A stretch of DNA of 64,000 bases. Origin: an uncultured Clostridia bacterium. GTDB taxonomy: Bacteria; Bacillota; Clostridia; Christensenellales; UBA3700. The stretch lies in contig CAMBZZ010000001.1 of the NCBI GenBank assembly GCA_945872615.1, forward strand, positions 90,701 to 154,700. Reading direction: 5' to 3'. This document shows positions 40,512 through 57,843 of this stretch, piece by piece (position 1 is the first letter of the stretch; each line of letters begins with the position of its first letter). The notes beneath the pieces are model-generated. The model saw only the letters and a program-made list of their open reading frames with translations. It was not told the origin of the DNA and did no database searches. The position numbers were made by a program, and so were the translations under genes.

Positions 40512-40587
<76 letters not shown>

Positions 40588-52680: not shown

Positions 52681-53004
52681 TTACTCTTTGTCGATATAAT
52701 AACAAACTAAGTCGACGACGCCTCGATTGTTAGTGCCGCCGCCCTTGATAGTGCATTCGAAGGTCATGCCCACCTTTTGCATTACTCTTCCCGACTTGGG
52801 ATTGTCATAGTCGTGCTTGGCAATTACTCTCCTAAAGCCGACCTCGTCAAACAAAAACCTAATAACCTCTCGCGCCGCTTCGGGCATTATTCCACGCCCC
52901 CACCAAGCTCTGCCTAGCACCCAACCGAGTTCCGCCACTCGTGCCTCTTCGACTATATTGACGACGGCAATATTGCCGATTAGCTCCTCCGTATCCTTGA
53001 GCAC
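52681..53004 (-). pseudogene. C-terminal half of a GNAT acetyltransferase domain (fragment downstream of an in-frame TGA)
   Basis: 107 codons in the same frame as 53011-53775, containing the acetyl-CoA-binding region (WWGRGIMPEAAREVIRF). There is no ATG; the track uses a GTG. Confidence 0.55.
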
Positions 53005-53010
53005 GACACC

Positions 53011-53775
53011 TCATTGATAGTTGGCGGGATTGTCATATTCGCCTTCGCACATAGTTAGATATGCTATCGAATCGTCTACGCTTTGATGCGTCTGCCAAGT
53101 CAAATACTTGGTAACCTCGTCGTCGGACGCCCAGTTGTCGAATACCGATTGAGCGTCATCTAAGGTGAGCGGACGCAAAATCAGTCTGTCCGTAGTCAAA
53201 ACTTTGGTTCCTTGATGATTCATAATAGTATTGCTTTGCTTCTTTGGGTTGTTGAGCCTAAGTCGATATAACTTGCCTATCGTGCGTATCGTGCCGCCGT
53301 TGCACTCGTATGGTACCTCTTTTTCTAATGCAAAGCCGAGTTTTTGAATTACGCGGGCGGACGCCTCGTTGTCAACCGCGTGCAAGGCTATGCAATTCTC
53401 TATCGCCAATATCTGTTGCGCAAACCTAAGCACCGCGCGCATTGCCTCAGTCGCATAGCCCTGCCCCCAATACTCCTTGCCGAGATTGTAGGATATATCC
53501 CACTCTCCTTGCTCGCCGTCGAAATATATCAAGCAAGTGCCTATAGTCAAGCCCTCCTTGGTAATTATCAACCACCTATACCAATCGTCGCTTTCTATTT
53601 TGGTCAACTCTTCCTTGACGAATCGGCGGGCATCCGCTATATCGTCGCTCGCCTTCCAATACATATATCGCGACACGTCCTCGTCGCTCATCCAACAATG
53701 GAATATATCGTCGACGTCGCTCTCTTGTATCGGGCGTAAAATTAGTCTATCCGTATATAAAGTTTCCGTTGTCAT
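53011..53775 (-). CDS. GNAT family N-acetyltransferase (RimJ/RimL-like), fused to the N-terminal half of a second GNAT domain
   Basis: 254 aa. The first domain is complete (TDRLILRP...WGQGYATEA...). The second begins at TDRLILRPLTLDD and ends at the TGA at 53011-53013. Confidence 0.75.
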   Translation of the reverse strand: MTTETLYTDRLILRPIQESDVDDIFHCWMSDEDVSRYMYWKASDDIADARRFVKEELTKIESDDWYRWLIITKEGLTIGTCLIYFDGEQGEWDISYNLGKEYWGQGYATEAMRAVLRFAQQILAIENCIALHAVDNEASARVIQKLGFALEKEVPYECNGGTIRTIGKLYRLRLNNPKKQSNTIMNHQGTKVLTTDRLILRPLTLDDAQSVFDNWASDDEVTKYLTWQTHQSVDDSIAYLTMCEGEYDNPANYQ

Positions 53776-54545
53776 CGACCTAATTGCTCCTTGGTAAATA
53801 AAACGTTGAGTACCCTCTGCGTAATAAAAATATATCGTCCGTCGTCGCTTACATGAACTCCGTAGCTGTCCACGACTTGTTGACCGTGTTTTTCTTTGAT
53901 TTGCTCATAGTTTACTGCCGTGGATATGAGCCGAGGAAACGTGATTGAAGTTTCGAAAAAATCTACCGTCTTTAGCCCTACGGATTGCCCGAGTTGCTGC
54001 CACTCTGACAACGTATAAAACTTGATATGCCCATCGGCTTTCATCTTCATATAGTCGTCGACAAAGCGCGTAGTATCGTCGTCGTTGGGCGTTGGATCGG
54101 CAATAAACAGCTCTCCGCCAGGCTTAAGTACTCTGCTTATTTCTCCGAAAGTGGAGCGAATATCGGGAAAATGATGCAGCGCGTATCGAGTTACGACTAC
54201 GTCAAAAGTGCCTGCTTGTAATGGAAAGTTCTCGCCGTCGTAAGATATAAAAACTACGTTGATTAGTCCCTCTTGCTTGGCGCTCTCCGTATTCTTTGCC
54301 AATGTTTTCTTTACAATATCCAATCCAACGACGCGTACCTCTTGGTAGCGTCTTGCGATTGCTAACGCAACGTACCCCGTGCCCGTGCCTAGGTCAAGCA
54401 CTTTGGCGTTGGGCTTTAGTTGCAAAGAGTCTATTATTTGGGACAAGTGCTTTGCATCTTGAGTTTGCCTATCGTACAACTTGCCTTCTGCAAAACTCTT
54501 TTCGAATCCCTCTTTGGTTGCTTGAATACTTATTTTGTTTTCCAT
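53772..54545 (-). CDS. Class I SAM-dependent methyltransferase
   Basis: 257 aa with motif I VLDLGTGTGYVA and a Methyltransf_11-like core. Confidence 0.8.
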   Translation of the reverse strand: MENKISIQATKEGFEKSFAEGKLYDRQTQDAKHLSQIIDSLQLKPNAKVLDLGTGTGYVALAIARRYQEVRVVGLDIVKKTLAKNTESAKQEGLINVVFISYDGENFPLQAGTFDVVVTRYALHHFPDIRSTFGEISRVLKPGGELFIADPTPNDDDTTRFVDDYMKMKADGHIKFYTLSEWQQLGQSVGLKTVDFFETSITFPRLISTAVNYEQIKEKHGQQVVDSYGVHVSDDGRYIFITQRVLNVLFTKEQLGR

Positions 54546-54633
54546 TTTTCTTATCGTTTTTATTAGTTATTGACTGTATGAGGTTTTTATCTTGATTGAC
54601 ATTTTTCTCCCTTTTCTATTCTTACGTAGCCTA

Positions 54634-54999
54634 TCACTCGATTTCGTATCCGGCAGTATTTAGCGCCTCGATTGCCTTGTCGTAATTTTCCGCTTTGACC
54701 AAAATATAGTCCGTGTTGTACGTGGAGATAACGAAAATGCCAATCTTTCGCTCCGCTAGAATACAGCTTAATTTGGACAACACGCCCGTCAAAGAAAAGT
54801 CCAAGGTGCCTTGTATGCGAAAACCTCGCCAACCGTCTTCTCTAGCCAGCGCAGACAATGGCGTATCTTCCGTCTTGCAAACTAGCGAGATTTCTTCATC
54901 GGTCTTGCCAATAAAGAAAATTTCTCGAGTTGGGTCTATATCCGTGATGAATTTTACTTTGCAAATAGTAAAATCGTAGTTTAATTTTTTTAGTTTCAT
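54634..54999 (-). CDS. ACT-domain-containing protein (ACT_7-like)
   Basis: 121 aa with the pattern FTICKV...ISLVC...GWRGFRIQGTLDFSLTGVLS...GIFVISTYNTDYILV. Confidence 0.6.
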   Translation of the reverse strand: MKLKKLNYDFTICKVKFITDIDPTREIFFIGKTDEEISLVCKTEDTPLSALAREDGWRGFRIQGTLDFSLTGVLSKLSCILAERKIGIFVISTYNTDYILVKAENYDKAIEALNTAGYEIE

Positions 55000-55045
55000 A
55001 ATCGTATAACGTATTTTGAATAACTGCCGCGTTGTAATCCTATTC

Positions 55046-55399
55046 TTAGGAATTCTTTTTTGCAGTTGTAATGGAGGAAATTAAAAGTTTTCTTATTTTG
55101 CTACATTTGGCAAATAGGTCAGTATATTCAGTTTCTTCAAGGATGTTTGCTTTCATGAATACATCGAGCCAATATTCGGTTTCGTAACATTCTTTTAAGG
55201 CTATTTGAAACTTGTTAATAAAGTCTGCTTTGCTAGAAGCATAGTTTGCTTCATGTATATTAGCTCCGATGCTTGTACCACTACGAAGCAACTGATTGAC
55301 AATCGCTACCGCTTGTTTTCTATCTTTGAGGCTATCGCAAATAGCTATTATATTTACCGCAAAAGCTTTGGAAAGCAACACTAATTGATTATCTTTCAT
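55046..55399 (-). CDS. Four-helix-bundle protein (23S rRNA intervening-sequence protein family, TIGR02436-like)
   Basis: 117 aa from the ATG at 55399 (AGGAGA RBS), with the motif QLLRSGTSIGANIHEA...E..YWL. Confidence 0.75.
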   Translation of the reverse strand: MKDNQLVLLSKAFAVNIIAICDSLKDRKQAVAIVNQLLRSGTSIGANIHEANYASSKADFINKFQIALKECYETEYWLDVFMKANILEETEYTDLFAKCSKIRKLLISSITTAKKNS

Positions 55400-55411
55400 T
55401 TTTTCTCCTAA

Positions 55412-55573
55412 TTGCATGAATTGACGGCGTTGCCTTCATGAATTTGCTTCGCCATGATTTCTCGCTTCGCTCCATGAATTAAATTGCTCCTTAATGCACC
55501 GTTGGTGCAATTCATGCCGTTAGGCAATTTATGCAACCTGTTGCAATTCATGCTTTGCAAGGAGCAATTCATA
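55412..55573. repeat. Array of eight CATGAATT / AATTCATG half-sites (4 forward, then 4 inverted)
   Basis: Forward copies at 55415, 55437, 55453 (variant) and 55473. Inverted copies at 55509, 55526 (variant), 55545 and 55566 (variant). Spacing is 16-22 nt. The array fills the gap between rumA-like and the four-helix-bundle gene. Confidence 0.8.
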
Positions 55574-56945
55574 CTCTCGTCAATTTGACGAGAGTCTCGA
55601 CGTGTCCCGTCATCGGGAACATATCGTACGGCTGAACGAAATCTACGCAATACTTAGGTAGTAACATCGCCATATCGCGAGCGAGGGTGGCGGGATTGCA
55701 AGAAACGTAGATTATTTGTTTAGGACGAGCTTGCAGTAAACAGTCGATGACCTCGGGCGAGCAACCTTTGCGCGGCGGGTCGACGACGACTATTCCGTCG
55801 GACAGTTTGTCTGCCGAATATTTGGCGATTTGCTTAGGTAGTTCCACCGTCACGTCTCCGCAAACGTTGGTTATCTTGTCTTGATTGCCGTTGAGCTTAG
55901 CTAGCGTATCGGCGTTGCGGACGGCGTCGGGTACTATCTCTATACCCACCACCTTATCGGCGTACTTGGCAAATATGTTGCTCATTACGCCCACACCGCT
56001 GAATAGGTCAAAGACTACGCTATGACTGCTCTTAGATATTATTTCGCCGACTTTAGAATAAATCATATCTCGCACGCCGTCGTTGATTTGCATAAAGGAC
56101 AACGGCGACACCCCTACCTTGACCCCCAGTATCTCGTCAAACAACGTATCTCGTCCGTAGAGCGTCTTGATGCACTTGCCGTAGATGACGTTGGTGCGGT
56201 CGGTATTGATAGACAAATATAGCGAAAAACTCAAACCGTGTGCCACAAAATCGTCAATTAAGCTATTATGATTAGGAAGCTTGTTGCCGTTGACAACGAC
56301 GACTATAGCAAAGGAATTGCCTACCTTTCTTACGCAAAAATGTCTGAGGAGTCCGCGATGAGAAGTTTCGTCGTACACCGAAAGGTCGTTGCGATTTGCC
56401 CATTCCAAAAAGACGTCTATCACCTCTTGCATTGCTCTATCGTGGAGCGGACAATCGCCTAAAGTACCGTCCTCCACCTTGCCAAGAGGCACGACCTTGT
56501 GTGTACCGTTCCTAAAGTAACCTACCGCAATCTTGCCGTCTACCAAGGTGATAGGCAGTTGGACTTTGTTGCGATAACCCCACTTAGATGGAGAAGCAAT
56601 CGTCGGCAAAACCGGTATGTCTTGACGGCATTGTTTGCGAATACAATCGGCTACTCTATTGGTCTTGATTGCTAGCTGATGAGCGTAGTCGATGTGTTGC
56701 ATTTCGCAACCGCCACATCCAAAATAGATAGGGCAAAGCGGTGCTACCCTAAGAGGTGAGGGCTGAAGCATTTTGATAACTTTGGCGGTGGCAAAAGCCT
56801 TTTTGTCCTCTGTTATTTGCACTTTGACCTGCTCTCCCTCAAGCGTCATGGGCACGAAAACCACCTTGCCGTCCACCTTGGCAACGCCCTCTCCATTCAT
56901 ACCCGTGCCGACTATCTCGACTTGCAATATATCTCCCTTGTTCAT
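55569..56945 (-). CDS. 23S rRNA (uracil-5-)-methyltransferase RumA/RlmD family
   Basis: 458 aa with an N-terminal TRAM domain, a Cys cluster (CPIYFGCGGC) and a C-terminal SAM MTase with a catalytic Cys region (YVSCNPATLARD). Confidence 0.85.
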   Translation of the reverse strand: MNKGDILQVEIVGTGMNGEGVAKVDGKVVFVPMTLEGEQVKVQITEDKKAFATAKVIKMLQPSPLRVAPLCPIYFGCGGCEMQHIDYAHQLAIKTNRVADCIRKQCRQDIPVLPTIASPSKWGYRNKVQLPITLVDGKIAVGYFRNGTHKVVPLGKVEDGTLGDCPLHDRAMQEVIDVFLEWANRNDLSVYDETSHRGLLRHFCVRKVGNSFAIVVVVNGNKLPNHNSLIDDFVAHGLSFSLYLSINTDRTNVIYGKCIKTLYGRDTLFDEILGVKVGVSPLSFMQINDGVRDMIYSKVGEIISKSSHSVVFDLFSGVGVMSNIFAKYADKVVGIEIVPDAVRNADTLAKLNGNQDKITNVCGDVTVELPKQIAKYSADKLSDGIVVVDPPRKGCSPEVIDCLLQARPKQIIYVSCNPATLARDMAMLLPKYCVDFVQPYDMFPMTGHVETLVKLTRV

Positions 56946-57031
56946 AGTATTATCATAACATTTTGGAGGGCAAAATACAATAAAAACGAATAATTATCAC
57001 CGCCTTTAACAAAATAAAAAGGGAGGGATAT

Positions 57032-57175
57032 ATGAAAAAACGCGGAACGCCCGCAAGACGTAGGGCAAGACAAAAGGATATTGACGATATGGCTATGAGC
57101 CTAAAAGACGAGGCAAACGATATATATCAATTTGAAAGAGACATAGCAGACTTTATCACTCATCCAAAAAAATAA
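57032..57175 (+). CDS. Small basic hypothetical protein (47 aa), not in the ORF track
   Basis: GGGAGGG RBS at 57021-57027. The product is MKKRGTPARRRARQKDIDDMAMSLKDEANDIYQFERDIADFITHPKK. A terminator hairpin follows immediately. Confidence 0.4.
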   Translation: MKKRGTPARRRARQKDIDDMAMSLKDEANDIYQFERDIADFITHPKK

Positions 57176-57198
57176 GTGGCTACGAGCCACTTTTTTAT
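57166..57198. terminator. Bidirectional intrinsic terminator
   Basis: Stem AAGTGGC/GCCACTT with a 5-nt loop, flanked by an A-run and a T-run. Lies between convergent genes. Confidence 0.7.
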
Positions 57199-57222
57199 TG
57201 CTTGTTTGTCCAAAATATTCTT

Positions 57223-57429
57223 TCAATATTCCTTCAGTCCCAACAGATAATCGCTGGACACGTCCAATGCAATCGCTATGTCGACTATCGTTTGCATAGG
57301 CGGTTCGTTGTGGTCGTTGAGCCATTCGCAAAGCGTAGACGTCTGCACTCGCAACTGCGCCGCCAGTTGTTTTTGGGTCATTCCTTTGTCTTTGAGCGTT
57401 TGCTTTACCCTTTCTCCGAATATTTGCAT
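57223..57429 (-). CDS. XRE-family HTH regulator (68 aa; possibly leaderless)
   Basis: MQIFGERVKQTLKDKGMTQKQLAAQLRVQTSTLCEWLN is a classic HTH_3 motif. There is no SD. TATAAT lies 6 nt upstream of this ATG on the minus strand. An alternative ATG is at 57435. Confidence 0.75.
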   Translation of the reverse strand: MQIFGERVKQTLKDKGMTQKQLAAQLRVQTSTLCEWLNDHNEPPMQTIVDIAIALDVSSDYLLGLKEY

Positions 57430-57462
57430 ATTCATATTATATAAATTATTGTTGCCATAATA

Positions 57463-57491
57463 TTGACAATTCATAAAATATGAATTATAAT
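57463..57491 (+). promoter_or_regulatory. Consensus sigma-70 promoter with a palindromic operator in the spacer
   Basis: TTGACA (57463-57468), then a 17-nt spacer that is itself ATTCATaaaatATGAAT (57469-57485), then TATAAT (57486-57491). Confidence 0.65.
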
Positions 57492-57519
57492 AAGCTTACT
57501 AAACATTGGGAGGATAATT

Positions 57520-57843
57520 ATGAAGTATTGTCAGCATTGTGGAGCTCCGATAAACGATAATGCGGAAATTTGCACGAAATGTGGTTGTAGAGTAAAAAAT
57601 AGTATAGAAGAAAACCTTAAGGGTAGTTTTGCTTTGGGCTTTTTAGCTAGTTTTTTCTTTGGCATTATTGGTTTGATTATCGGGCTTATTTGCGGTGGAA
57701 AAACTAAAAACGGCGCTGTAAAAGGCTTTATCGTTTCAATCATCTTGTCAATCATCGTTGTAGTATTATACTTTGTCGTAATTGCCGGAATGGTCGATTA
57801 CGGAGAACTATGGGCAATGGCAAATAGTATAATTGCTTTATAA
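57520..57843 (+). CDS. Zinc-ribbon membrane protein
   Basis: 107 aa with a GGGAGGA RBS. The N-terminal ribbon is CQHCG...CTKCG, followed by two TM helices. Confidence 0.7.
   Translation: MKYCQHCGAPINDNAEICTKCGCRVKNSIEENLKGSFALGFLASFFFGIIGLIIGLICGGKTKNGAVKGFIVSIILSIIVVVLYFVVIAGMVDYGELWAMANSIIAL

Follow-up and report, generated by a model that had tools for sequence, protein, structure and literature searches.

Why should the 169-bp gap between a 23S rRNA methyltransferase gene and the gene of a small helical-bundle protein be occupied by copies of one short word? The question is raised by a 64-kb stretch of DNA from an uncultured Clostridia bacterium (contig CAMBZZ010000001.1, positions 90,701 to 154,700), hereafter the window, to whose full length all coordinates refer. 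Its minus strand, here termed the gene strand, carries rumA, which encodes an RlmD-like 23S rRNA (uracil-5) methyltransferase, the gene of a four-helix-bundle (4HB) protein of the S23p or intervening-sequence (IVS) protein family (PF05635/TIGR02436), and an ACT-domain gene. The original prediction placed eight octamers in the rumA–4HB gap, four forward and four inverted; five exact and three one-mismatch copies were located, and, as described, these 4 + 4 units make the gap a long, imperfect inverted repeat. Beyond that description, the element was found to start inside the coding end of rumA, to contain an asymmetric core, and to belong to a dispersed multi-copy family related to the Gut-1 RNA motif. 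The existence of this repeat family, its layout and dispersal, its coupling to 4HB genes, the shift of its heptamer "flavour" between 4HB subfamilies, and the identity of the GTGAAAT and ATGAAAT flavours with Gut-1 are put forward with high confidence.

The finding links two orphans, the Gut-1 RNA motif (2010) and the S23p/IVS four-helix-bundle proteins. To our knowledge, no function has been assigned to PF05635, a family of thousands of members, outside the retroelement protein Avd. Heptamer arrays that vary in sequence with the protein subfamily provide a candidate ligand for the 4HB protein, and naturally matched protein–array pairs are available for binding tests. The arrays also account for a repeat class that breaks gut Clostridia metagenome assemblies, and the view of array and 4HB gene as one cassette, set out below, would, if true, explain the presence of an S23p open reading frame (ORF) in rRNA intervening sequences. 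The protein–repeat coupling is absent from the source paper of Gut-1 and from the literature searched, in which no paper linking the 4HB protein family to Gut-1 turned up.

The Array in the Intergenic Gap

On the plus strand the octamer CATGAATT occurs exactly at 55415, 55437 and 55473 and with one mismatch, as CATGATTT, from 55453; its inverted counterpart AATTCATG is exact at 55509 and 55545 and carries one mismatch in the copies AATTTATG (from 55526) and AATTCATA (from 55565). Start-to-start spacings amount to 22, 16 and 20 nt in the first set and to 17, 19 and 20–21 nt in the second. The concern that the octamer might simply occur at the frequency given by base composition was addressed within the window. 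The exact octamer is found six times versus 2.73 expected from shuffles, with five of the six copies inside 160 bp of the gap, where about 0.007 would be expected in a stretch of that length (a figure derived from the window shuffles); the bare heptamer ATGAATT remains at chance level (14 observed versus 12.8 expected, 6 of the 14 in the gap). Since the copies are concentrated in the gap and the heptamer is at chance across the window, the signal is one of local clustering, with no genome-wide excess. Folding of the stretch as RNA, which had been proposed as a check, gave z = −5.16 relative to shuffles, and folding as DNA gave z = −4.46 and −4.93 for the two strands.

A Dispersed Repeat Family

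One genome per species was scanned with the core pattern CAYGGAGCGNAGCGARAAATCA, which returned at least 129 instances in at least 120 stretches. Among the matches listed, to which all counts of core instances given here refer, the carriers are nearly all metagenome-assembled genomes (MAGs) of gut or rumen Clostridia (Oscillospiraceae, Faecousia, Acutalibacteraceae, among others); genomes carry several copies each, and single MAGs (JAFSPW01, JAZMZW01) up to 5–7 cores. The window holds one copy of the element. A phage origin was rejected, the core pattern having matched in only one of 2.9 million viral contigs. A triple-heptamer pattern gave 56 matches in the viral contigs, many of them in giant-virus (GVMAG) contigs; these are assumed to be unrelated to the element.

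On the gene strand a longer hairpin (P0) usually comes first; it is followed by some four units, each made up of AUGAAUU and a GC hairpin, then by the core GGAGCGNAGCGAG, and last by three or four units of a hairpin plus AAUUCAU. In the window copy the series is opened by P0, which lies within the last codons of rumA and immediately 5′ of the first heptamer, and is closed by the ribosome-binding site of the 4HB gene; relatives carry in the P0 slot a hairpin of different sequence at the same place. The core, CAUGGAGCGAAGCGAGAAAUCA in the window, is the best-conserved block of the family and sets the polarity of the element. The heptamers are spaced by 16 to 24 bp. The second inverted unit always reads AAATCAT, and no forward position is mainly ATGATTT. 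Other layouts comprise the inverted-then-forward order, arrays of a single orientation, and arrays of 3 to 13 units that arose via tandem duplication. A CRISPR-like reading was rejected, as the repeat is only 7 nt long and the "spacers" are palindromes of 9–17 nt.

A number of individual loci (L numbers denote the loci compared) add detail to this picture. At rumA loci of other species the 5′ arm of P0 encodes the conserved RumA C-terminus (HVE[ST][VI]V.L), and the 3′ arm, its reverse complement, adds a short tail. Two tandem elements follow rumA in L002 (3553–4000); the 33 nt left of a second rumA 3′ end lie between them and suggest that rumA alleles, each bearing an array, have recombined. 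In L148 (2150–3100 and 4620–4960) ATGAATT arrays lie on both sides of the 4HB gene, and a core unit, GGAGCGAAGCGAG plus AATTCAT, is repeated five times; the same contig harbors orphan arrays of a third flavour (ATGATAT/ATATCAT) next to a tRNA gene, so that several flavours coexist in one genome. The GC-rich MAGs L064, L078, L105, L133 and L135 contain inverted-then-forward arrays amid other GC-rich palindromic repeat families (for example GGTGGAGGCAAG... and AAAAGCCCGGGGCC...GGCACCCGGGC), and thus carry several kinds of extragenic palindrome. Many short metagenome contigs (L006, L008, L010, L011, L013, and many ENA contigs) stop inside the array, which seems to be a frequent assembly breakpoint.

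Association with the Four-Helix-Bundle Gene

Of 129 core instances, 24 are directly followed by a 4HB ORF of the same strand and 16 are preceded by the 3′ end of rumA; some 60 instances with room on both sides adjoin neither gene. When 421 neighbouring ORFs were clustered, 4HB and rumA were the sole recurrent families, with no transposase or other recurrent partner among them. The order rumA, gap of about 168 nt, 4HB is kept in genomes whose 4HB protein is 97%, 76% and 75% identical to that of the window, and the gene that follows 4HB varies (ACT, DUF2716 or TfoX). The gaps of these genomes have the heptamers and the core in common; their hairpin stems differ, with compensation.

The association also holds when approached from the protein. 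Eighty metagenome loci were retrieved by the 4HB protein alone (54–77% identity), 55 of them non-redundant and with enough upstream sequence, and an array was scored wherever a 7-mer was repeated at least four times within 300 nt upstream of the 4HB gene. Such arrays precede 47 of the 55 protein-sampled 4HB genes (85%), as compared with 20 of 308 control windows. The early remark that TIGR02436/IVS genes are often embedded in odd repeats is thereby borne out, and the refuting condition named at the outset, that no other 4HB gene shares the motif, does not hold, other 4HB genes carrying the same architecture. Furthermore, the heptamer follows the protein: at 4HB identities of at least 60% it is almost always ATGAATT/AATTCAT, at 56–59% it is GTGAAAT/ATTTCAC or ATGAAAT/ATTTCAT, and one 4HB locus has GTGAATA/AATTCAC. 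The hairpins of an array differ from one another but its word does not, which argues for sequence-specific reading of the word, with the 4HB protein as the obvious candidate reader.

Modules of the GTGAAAT flavour directly follow tRNA genes or 5S rRNA. Arrays of this kind with their 4HB gene are located after tRNA genes in L184, L190, L191, L198–L201, L203, L205, L209, L210, L214 and L217, on the same strand and within about 300 nt past tRNAs that represent six or more identities (Cys, Met, Asn after 5S rRNA, Ser, Tyr, Gly). Where GTGAAAT loci were inspected closely, the first hairpin is the intrinsic terminator of the tRNA operon.

Pairing and Polarity

The octamers had been taken for simple half-sites on double-stranded DNA, an assignment that is not sustained by the intervening spacers, which are covarying end-to-end hairpins. 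Hairpins of at least 3 bp spanning the spacer are formed by 82% of 149 unique left-arm spacers and 84% of 110 unique right-arm spacers, versus 6–8% of shuffled spacers; they open with G and close with C, and their sequence is free between copies while the pairing is kept. A unit thus consists of a heptamer together with a hairpin, and this composition suggests a single strand that folds. In addition, a long-range helix connects the first heptamer and the start of the first spacer with the centre of the element; in the window its arms are an 11-nt inverted repeat of 100% complementarity. At least 4 nt of extra complementarity is present in 54% of elements, as opposed to 9.7% of cross-element pairings of arm and centre. 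RNAalifold picks the same helix from 43 non-redundant copies (column pairs AU 23/CG 9/GC 8 and AU 18/CG 13/GC 3), and 8 pairs show double-sided changes. The covariation of both the spacer hairpins and the long-range helix implies that some single-stranded form of the element is under selection.

Which strand, and which nucleic acid, is a further matter. Of 138 forward units, 36 have G in place of A at position 1 of the heptamer, and the mirror-image substitution is found in 1 of the 138 inverted ones, an asymmetry that would fit G–U tolerance on the gene strand. Sigma-70 promoters are found 5′ of the array in L036, L108, L163, L153 and L165. An RNA of one strand is thus favored by the polar core, the promoters upstream of arrays, the operon position in the window, and the G–U-compatible asymmetry; the observations that point elsewhere are taken up together with the mechanism.

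Relation to Known RNAs, Repeats, and Proteins

Gut-1 RNA (RF01706) was described as three hairpins separated by GUGAAAU, with the consensus CAAUGAAAU-hairpin-GUGAAAU-hairpin-GUGAAAU-hairpin-GUGAAAU, and was rated a likely RNA from covariation; the source paper treats it as a stand-alone small RNA from human gut metagenomes only, and mentions no function, host or gene association (Weinberg et al. 2010, PMC2864571). The element of the window shares its grammar, namely a heptamer alternating with covarying GC hairpins after a longer 5′ hairpin. At 50–80 bits the RF01706 model recognizes GTGAAAT, ATGAAAT and ATGATAT arrays, with forward and inverted arrays matching on opposite strands, and 4HB genes 56–59% identical to that of the window bear such RF01706-scoring arrays, with ATGAAAT as the intermediate flavour that links both. 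The window heptamer AUGAAUU differs from the GUGAAAU consensus at two positions, and RF01706 gave no match in 55300–55700 even at E ≤ 10, none window-wide at the gathering score (50 bits), and none in the ATGAATT-flavour loci L024, L036, L041, L088 and L133; other Rfam families gave only noise-level matches in the gap. The published motif moreover corresponds to the forward, three-hairpin part, to which the full element adds the core and the inverted array, and the element is found in MAGs of rumen as well as gut Clostridia, in association with a protein gene.

A second relative is the intervening sequence of 23S rRNA known from Coxiella and Leptospira. The Coxiella IVS contains an S23p-family ORF and a 28-bp terminal stem, is cleaved by RNase III at the first repeat, and bears GACAGAT heptamers in tandem upstream of the ORF, two or three according to strain; S23p-bearing 23S IVS are regarded as selfish insertions in a host transcript, the S23p of X. 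campestris is a homopentameric toroid, and the role of the S23p/IVS protein was still called unknown in the 2016 Coxiella study (PMC4990558). Common to the IVS and the window element are a PF05635 ORF, inverted repeats, and tandem heptamers just before the ORF; the 28 bp of the Coxiella stem equal 4 × 7, and the related GTGAAAT modules sit after 5S rRNA and tRNA genes. In contrast to the IVS, which are inserted in helix 25 or 45, the window element is found between rumA and 4HB, outside rRNA (the sole Rfam match in the window at the gathering threshold is one tRNA at 40512–40584). Both of its arrays lie upstream of the ORF and none flanks it as a terminal repeat, its heptamers are interleaved with hairpins, and the family has many copies without an ORF.

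The closest solved relative of the 4HB protein is PDB 2RLD from Bacteroides thetaiotaomicron (E = 6e-25 over residues 1–116; five chains), and a profile search returned 2RLD at 4.7e-57 and 2GSC, likewise with five chains, at 0.038. Bacteroides relatives of 2RLD (L275–L285) are placed inside operons, as in araD–4HB–araA and aminotransferase–4HB–DAHP synthase, and are flanked by inverted contiguous heptamers without hairpins, (CAATTGA)4–5 upstream and (TCAATTG)4–5 downstream, whose unit contains TTGACA. The theme common to all these cases is an S23p gene with inverted arrays of short repeats in or beside stable-RNA or operon transcripts. Avd is a four-helix-bundle protein that is pentameric, basic, and binds nucleic acid; the window 4HB protein is near neutral in charge as counted from its sequence, and Avd was not retrieved by the sequence profile of the window 4HB clade at E ≤ 1. 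Neither a reverse transcriptase nor a pair of template and variable repeats was found among the seven genes at 53011–57843, the rest of the window being unscanned for reverse transcriptase. A resemblance of PF05635 to Avd, the accessory protein of diversity-generating retroelements, has been reported (PMC10053308).

With regard to DNA repeats, the element resembles other families in being dispersed, intergenic, modular, variable in unit number, and present in both orientations. The repetitive extragenic palindromes (REP) and bacterial interspersed mosaic elements (BIME) of enterobacteria and the BOX elements of pneumococci are dispersed intergenic palindrome mosaics with variable units in both orientations, often located after stop codons. 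What is preserved in these families is the sequence of the stem; in the present element it is the linker heptamer, and the stems are variable. RAYT transposases accompany REPs, whereas the only protein associated here is a 117-aa helical bundle without a known catalytic motif. Finally, the leader of the trp operon, in which the ring protein TRAP binds evenly spaced short RNA repeats, offers a likeness in the proposed logic only, that is, an oligomeric ring, one short repeat per subunit, and the leader of a regulated gene; it is a pure analogy, since fold, repeat length and spacing differ from those of the 4HB array. In summary of these comparisons, the kind to which the element belongs is already known from the Gut-1 motif and the S23p IVS cassette; new are the different heptamer, the fuller architecture, and the dispersed copies.

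Proposed Mode of Action

No promoter or terminator is predicted in the rumA–4HB gap, and the element of the window genome is thus probably transcribed along with rumA and the 4HB gene. The preferred mechanism is as follows. Array and 4HB gene would make up a self-contained unit, a cassette of the kind also represented by the intervening sequences of 23S rRNA that carry S23p, and in the window the array would be transcribed within a rumA–4HB–ACT operon. Folding of the transcript would give P0, a closed domain of three hairpins, the core, and two further hairpins, and the structure would stop 7 nt short of the 4HB ribosome-binding site. The single strand thus folded, either RNA or transiently single-stranded DNA, would be the cis-acting partner of the 4HB protein, which is presumed to form a pentameric ring by analogy with the five-chain solved relatives and the one homopentamer. 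The four to five heptamers of an array might then provide one heptamer per 4HB subunit, with the hairpins directed outward. Binding of the 4HB protein and/or cleavage of the paired arrays by RNase III, in the manner of the rRNA intervening sequences, would set 4HB expression and uncouple 4HB from rumA, and the orphan arrays elsewhere would serve as additional binding or processing sites. Taken alone, this cassette mechanism is tentative, its prospects being somewhat below even; the overall explanation, which combines the repeat family, its coupling to 4HB genes and the cassette mechanism, is about evenly balanced.

A wider generalization, considered rather unlikely, would see the S23p/4HB (PF05635) proteins as ring-shaped, sequence-specific readers of tandem heptamers which, together with inverted arrays, constitute a distinct class of minimal selfish cassette. 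Such a cassette would settle across phyla in 23S intervening sequences, at the ends of tRNA and 5S operons, in Bacteroides sugar operons, and at the 3′ end of rumA, and the Gut-1 "RNAs" and the dispersed Clostridial arrays would represent orphan or amplified binding arrays.

Several observations weigh against the cassette mechanism, in particular against a protein that reads one RNA. The match of five subunits to about five heptamers is numerology so far. The hairpin stems are about 99% Watson–Crick, with G–T not commoner than A–C, and the loops are mirrored, TNC in the left arm and GNA in the right; both features are more suggestive of a constraint that acts on the two strands of DNA than of one acting on a single RNA. 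The 4HB genes are preceded by forward-only arrays (L168, L169), inverted-only arrays (L149, L153, L165) and inverted-then-forward arrays (L148, L171), and a protein that reads a single RNA word cannot bind all of them. Arrays of the GTGAAAT flavour have an intrinsic terminator on one side and a strong 4HB promoter on the other, and hence probably lie outside the 4HB mRNA. Orphan copies show no consistent polarity relative to neighbouring genes (61 in the same and 24 in the opposite orientation) and none relative to terminators (10/55 sense versus 12/55 antisense). A nested pairing of forward with inverted heptamers was rejected for want of complementary variants, there being only a weak F4–R1 association (p = 0.002, uncorrected for 32 tests). 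Part of the conflict between RNA and DNA may be reconciled by the quasi-palindromic layout, which reads forward-then-inverted from either strand.

A first alternative is a DNA-level system of repetitive extragenic palindromes of the REP/BIME, BOX, or miniature inverted-repeat transposable element (MITE) type, in which hairpins or mini-cruciforms would extrude from supercoiled or replicating DNA. The arrays would then be topological, replication or recombination sites, or would delimit a non-autonomous mobile element; the 4HB gene would be a passenger or the source of a DNA-binding partner, and transcription in the window would be incidental. Copies are indeed dispersed in the manner of MITE or REP-like repeats, intergenic and modular, with 3 to 13 units and tandem duplications. 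Besides the almost purely Watson–Crick stems without wobble excess, the two orientations relative to neighbours without terminator polarity, and the location of GTGAAAT arrays between terminator and promoter, this alternative is favored by the mirror symmetry of the arms, the equal DNA folding of both strands, and the frequent breakage of contigs within the array. The loops on the AATTCAT strand are of the form C-GNA-G, which reportedly belongs to a hyperstable class of DNA triloops, the core GCGNAGC being said to be the textbook case (Hirao; Yoshizawa). Against it stand the polarity of the element, with its core on one strand and unequal variant spectra of the arms, which a purely symmetric DNA site should lack, and the stable inheritance of rumA–array–4HB across species with 4HB proteins 66–100% identical. 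No transposase, RAYT or integrase recurs beside the copies, and neither a target-site duplication nor a clean empty site was obtained from comparison of L141 with L140 or of L286 with L275. All in all, a system acting at the DNA level is possible, if unlikely.

The two comparisons just mentioned deserve a word of their own. L141 equals L140 from the P0 hairpin onward, downstream genes included, and its upstream DNA is unrelated; the difference is therefore an upstream breakpoint and no new insertion, and transposition of the module was rejected as its cause. The P0 hairpin in L141 would accordingly mark a breakpoint, either of rearrangement or of integration, unless the assembly is chimeric. 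L286 is a related Bacteroides species that has araD–araA and lacks the 4HB cassette; as a candidate empty site it was rejected, since its intergenic DNA cannot be aligned and neither the boundaries nor a duplication can be read.

It is improbable that the array is a free-standing or leader RNA without a protein partner, whose Gut-1-type hairpins protect, terminate or process transcripts and beside which 4HB is incidental. The rating of Gut-1 as a likely RNA by covariation (Weinberg et al., PMC2864571), the covariation of spacer hairpins and long-range helix, the strong RNA fold, and the many orphan copies between a stop codon and a terminator would all be accommodated. Left unexplained, however, are the constancy of the heptamer amid drifting hairpins, its change of flavour with the 4HB subfamily, the presence of arrays at 85% of sampled 4HB genes, and the hairpin-less heptamer arrays around Bacteroides and Coxiella S23p ORFs.

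In the original suggestion a sequence-specific DNA-binding regulator would recognize the octamers as double-stranded half-sites; this might be the XRE protein (57223–57474), which would also bind the palindromic promoter at 57463–57491. The suggestion can draw on the promoter spacer AATTCATAAAATATGAATT, which holds the heptamer twice in inverted orientation, and on some other-flavour loci in which the array directly adjoins the −35 box of the 4HB promoter, where operators are typically found. It is highly improbable, because spacings of 16 to 24 bp leave the sites unphased on the helix face, the spacers are selected for pairing and not for sequence, 14 orphan copies between convergent genes have nothing to regulate, a single distant palindrome carries little weight with the heptamer at chance frequency window-wide, and the XRE ortholog does not accompany the array. 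Among 218 loci examined, most of them with arrays, this ortholog is present only in L005, of the same species; the close strains L003 and L004 keep the array and have other genes in place of the XRE and zinc-ribbon pair, and the other loci examined gave merely weak, generic helix-turn-helix matches. A link of XRE to the array was rejected on these grounds, the ortholog being missing from all array loci other than L005.

The Locus and Its Neighbors

The coordinates of the element and its adjoining genes are compiled in Table 1. The 4HB gene, with a likely ATG start at 55399, is the single match to its family in the window, and the ACT-domain gene follows 46 nt after its stop codon. The seven genes scanned at 53011–57843 are those of rumA, a class I S-adenosylmethionine (SAM) methyltransferase, 4HB, ACT, GNAT, XRE, and a zinc-ribbon protein.

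Table 1. Features of the rumA–4HB locus in the 64-kb window (gene strand, minus).
Feature	Position	Strand	Remarks	Evidence
rumA / RlmD-like 23S rRNA (uracil-5) methyltransferase gene	55569–56945	minus		Pfam TRAM + tRNA_U5-meth_tr; TIGR00479 E = 4.9e-104
rumA stop codon TGA	55569–55571	minus	falls within first heptamer	sequence reading
Hairpin P0	55573–55595	minus	perfect 11-bp stem ACUCUCGUCAA / UUGACGAGAGU	inverted repeat; paired in every fold
Forward heptamer AUGAAUU	55566–55572	minus		
Forward-array spacer	55552–55565	minus		
Forward heptamer AUGAAUU	55545–55551	minus		
Forward-array spacer	55533–55544	minus	GCAAC/GUUGC	
Forward heptamer AUAAAUU	55526–55532	minus		
Forward-array spacer	55516–55525	minus	GCC/GGC	
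Forward heptamer AUGAAUU	55509–55515	minus		
Fourth forward-array hairpin, GCACC AAC GGUGC	55496–55508	minus		paired in all folds, including both DNA centroids
Long-range helix, 5′ arm AAUUGCUCCUU	55559–55569	minus	first heptamer and start of first spacer	pairs with 55482–55492
Long-range helix, 3′ arm AAGGAGCAAUU	55482–55492	minus	element centre; helix closes domain of hairpins 2 to 4	
Asymmetric core CAUGGAGCGAAGCGAGAAAUCA	55455–55476	minus	includes GCGNAGC	invariant alignment columns
Inverted heptamer AAUUCAU	55474–55480	minus		
Inverted heptamer AAAUCAU	55454–55460	minus		
Inverted-array spacer GGCGAAGC	55446–55453	minus	degenerate in window copy	
Inverted heptamer AAUUCAU	55438–55444	minus		
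Inverted-array spacer	55423–55437	minus	hairpin, one mismatch	
Inverted heptamer AAUUCAU	55416–55422	minus		
4HB ribosome-binding site AGGAG	55404–55408	minus	7 nt past last heptamer	sequence reading
4HB gene, PF05635 / TIGR02436 (S23p or IVS-protein family)	55046–55399	minus	117 aa	Pfam E = 7.6e-25; TIGR02436 E = 9.8e-29

The promoter palindrome pointed out in the original prediction (TTGACA-ATTCATAAAATATGAAT-TATAAT) is present as described. The promoter is a perfect sigma-70 consensus (TTGACA, 17 nt, TATAAT; 12/12) whose spacer is the palindrome itself, and it lies between the XRE gene on the minus strand and the gene of a zinc-ribbon membrane protein on the plus strand (57520–57843). The palindrome is probably the XRE protein's own operator. 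Farther along the minus strand, a gene for a double-GNAT acetyltransferase (52681–53775) is interrupted in frame by TGA at a codon that reads TGG (Trp) in L001 and L008, and is a nonsense variant or a pseudogene in the window genome.

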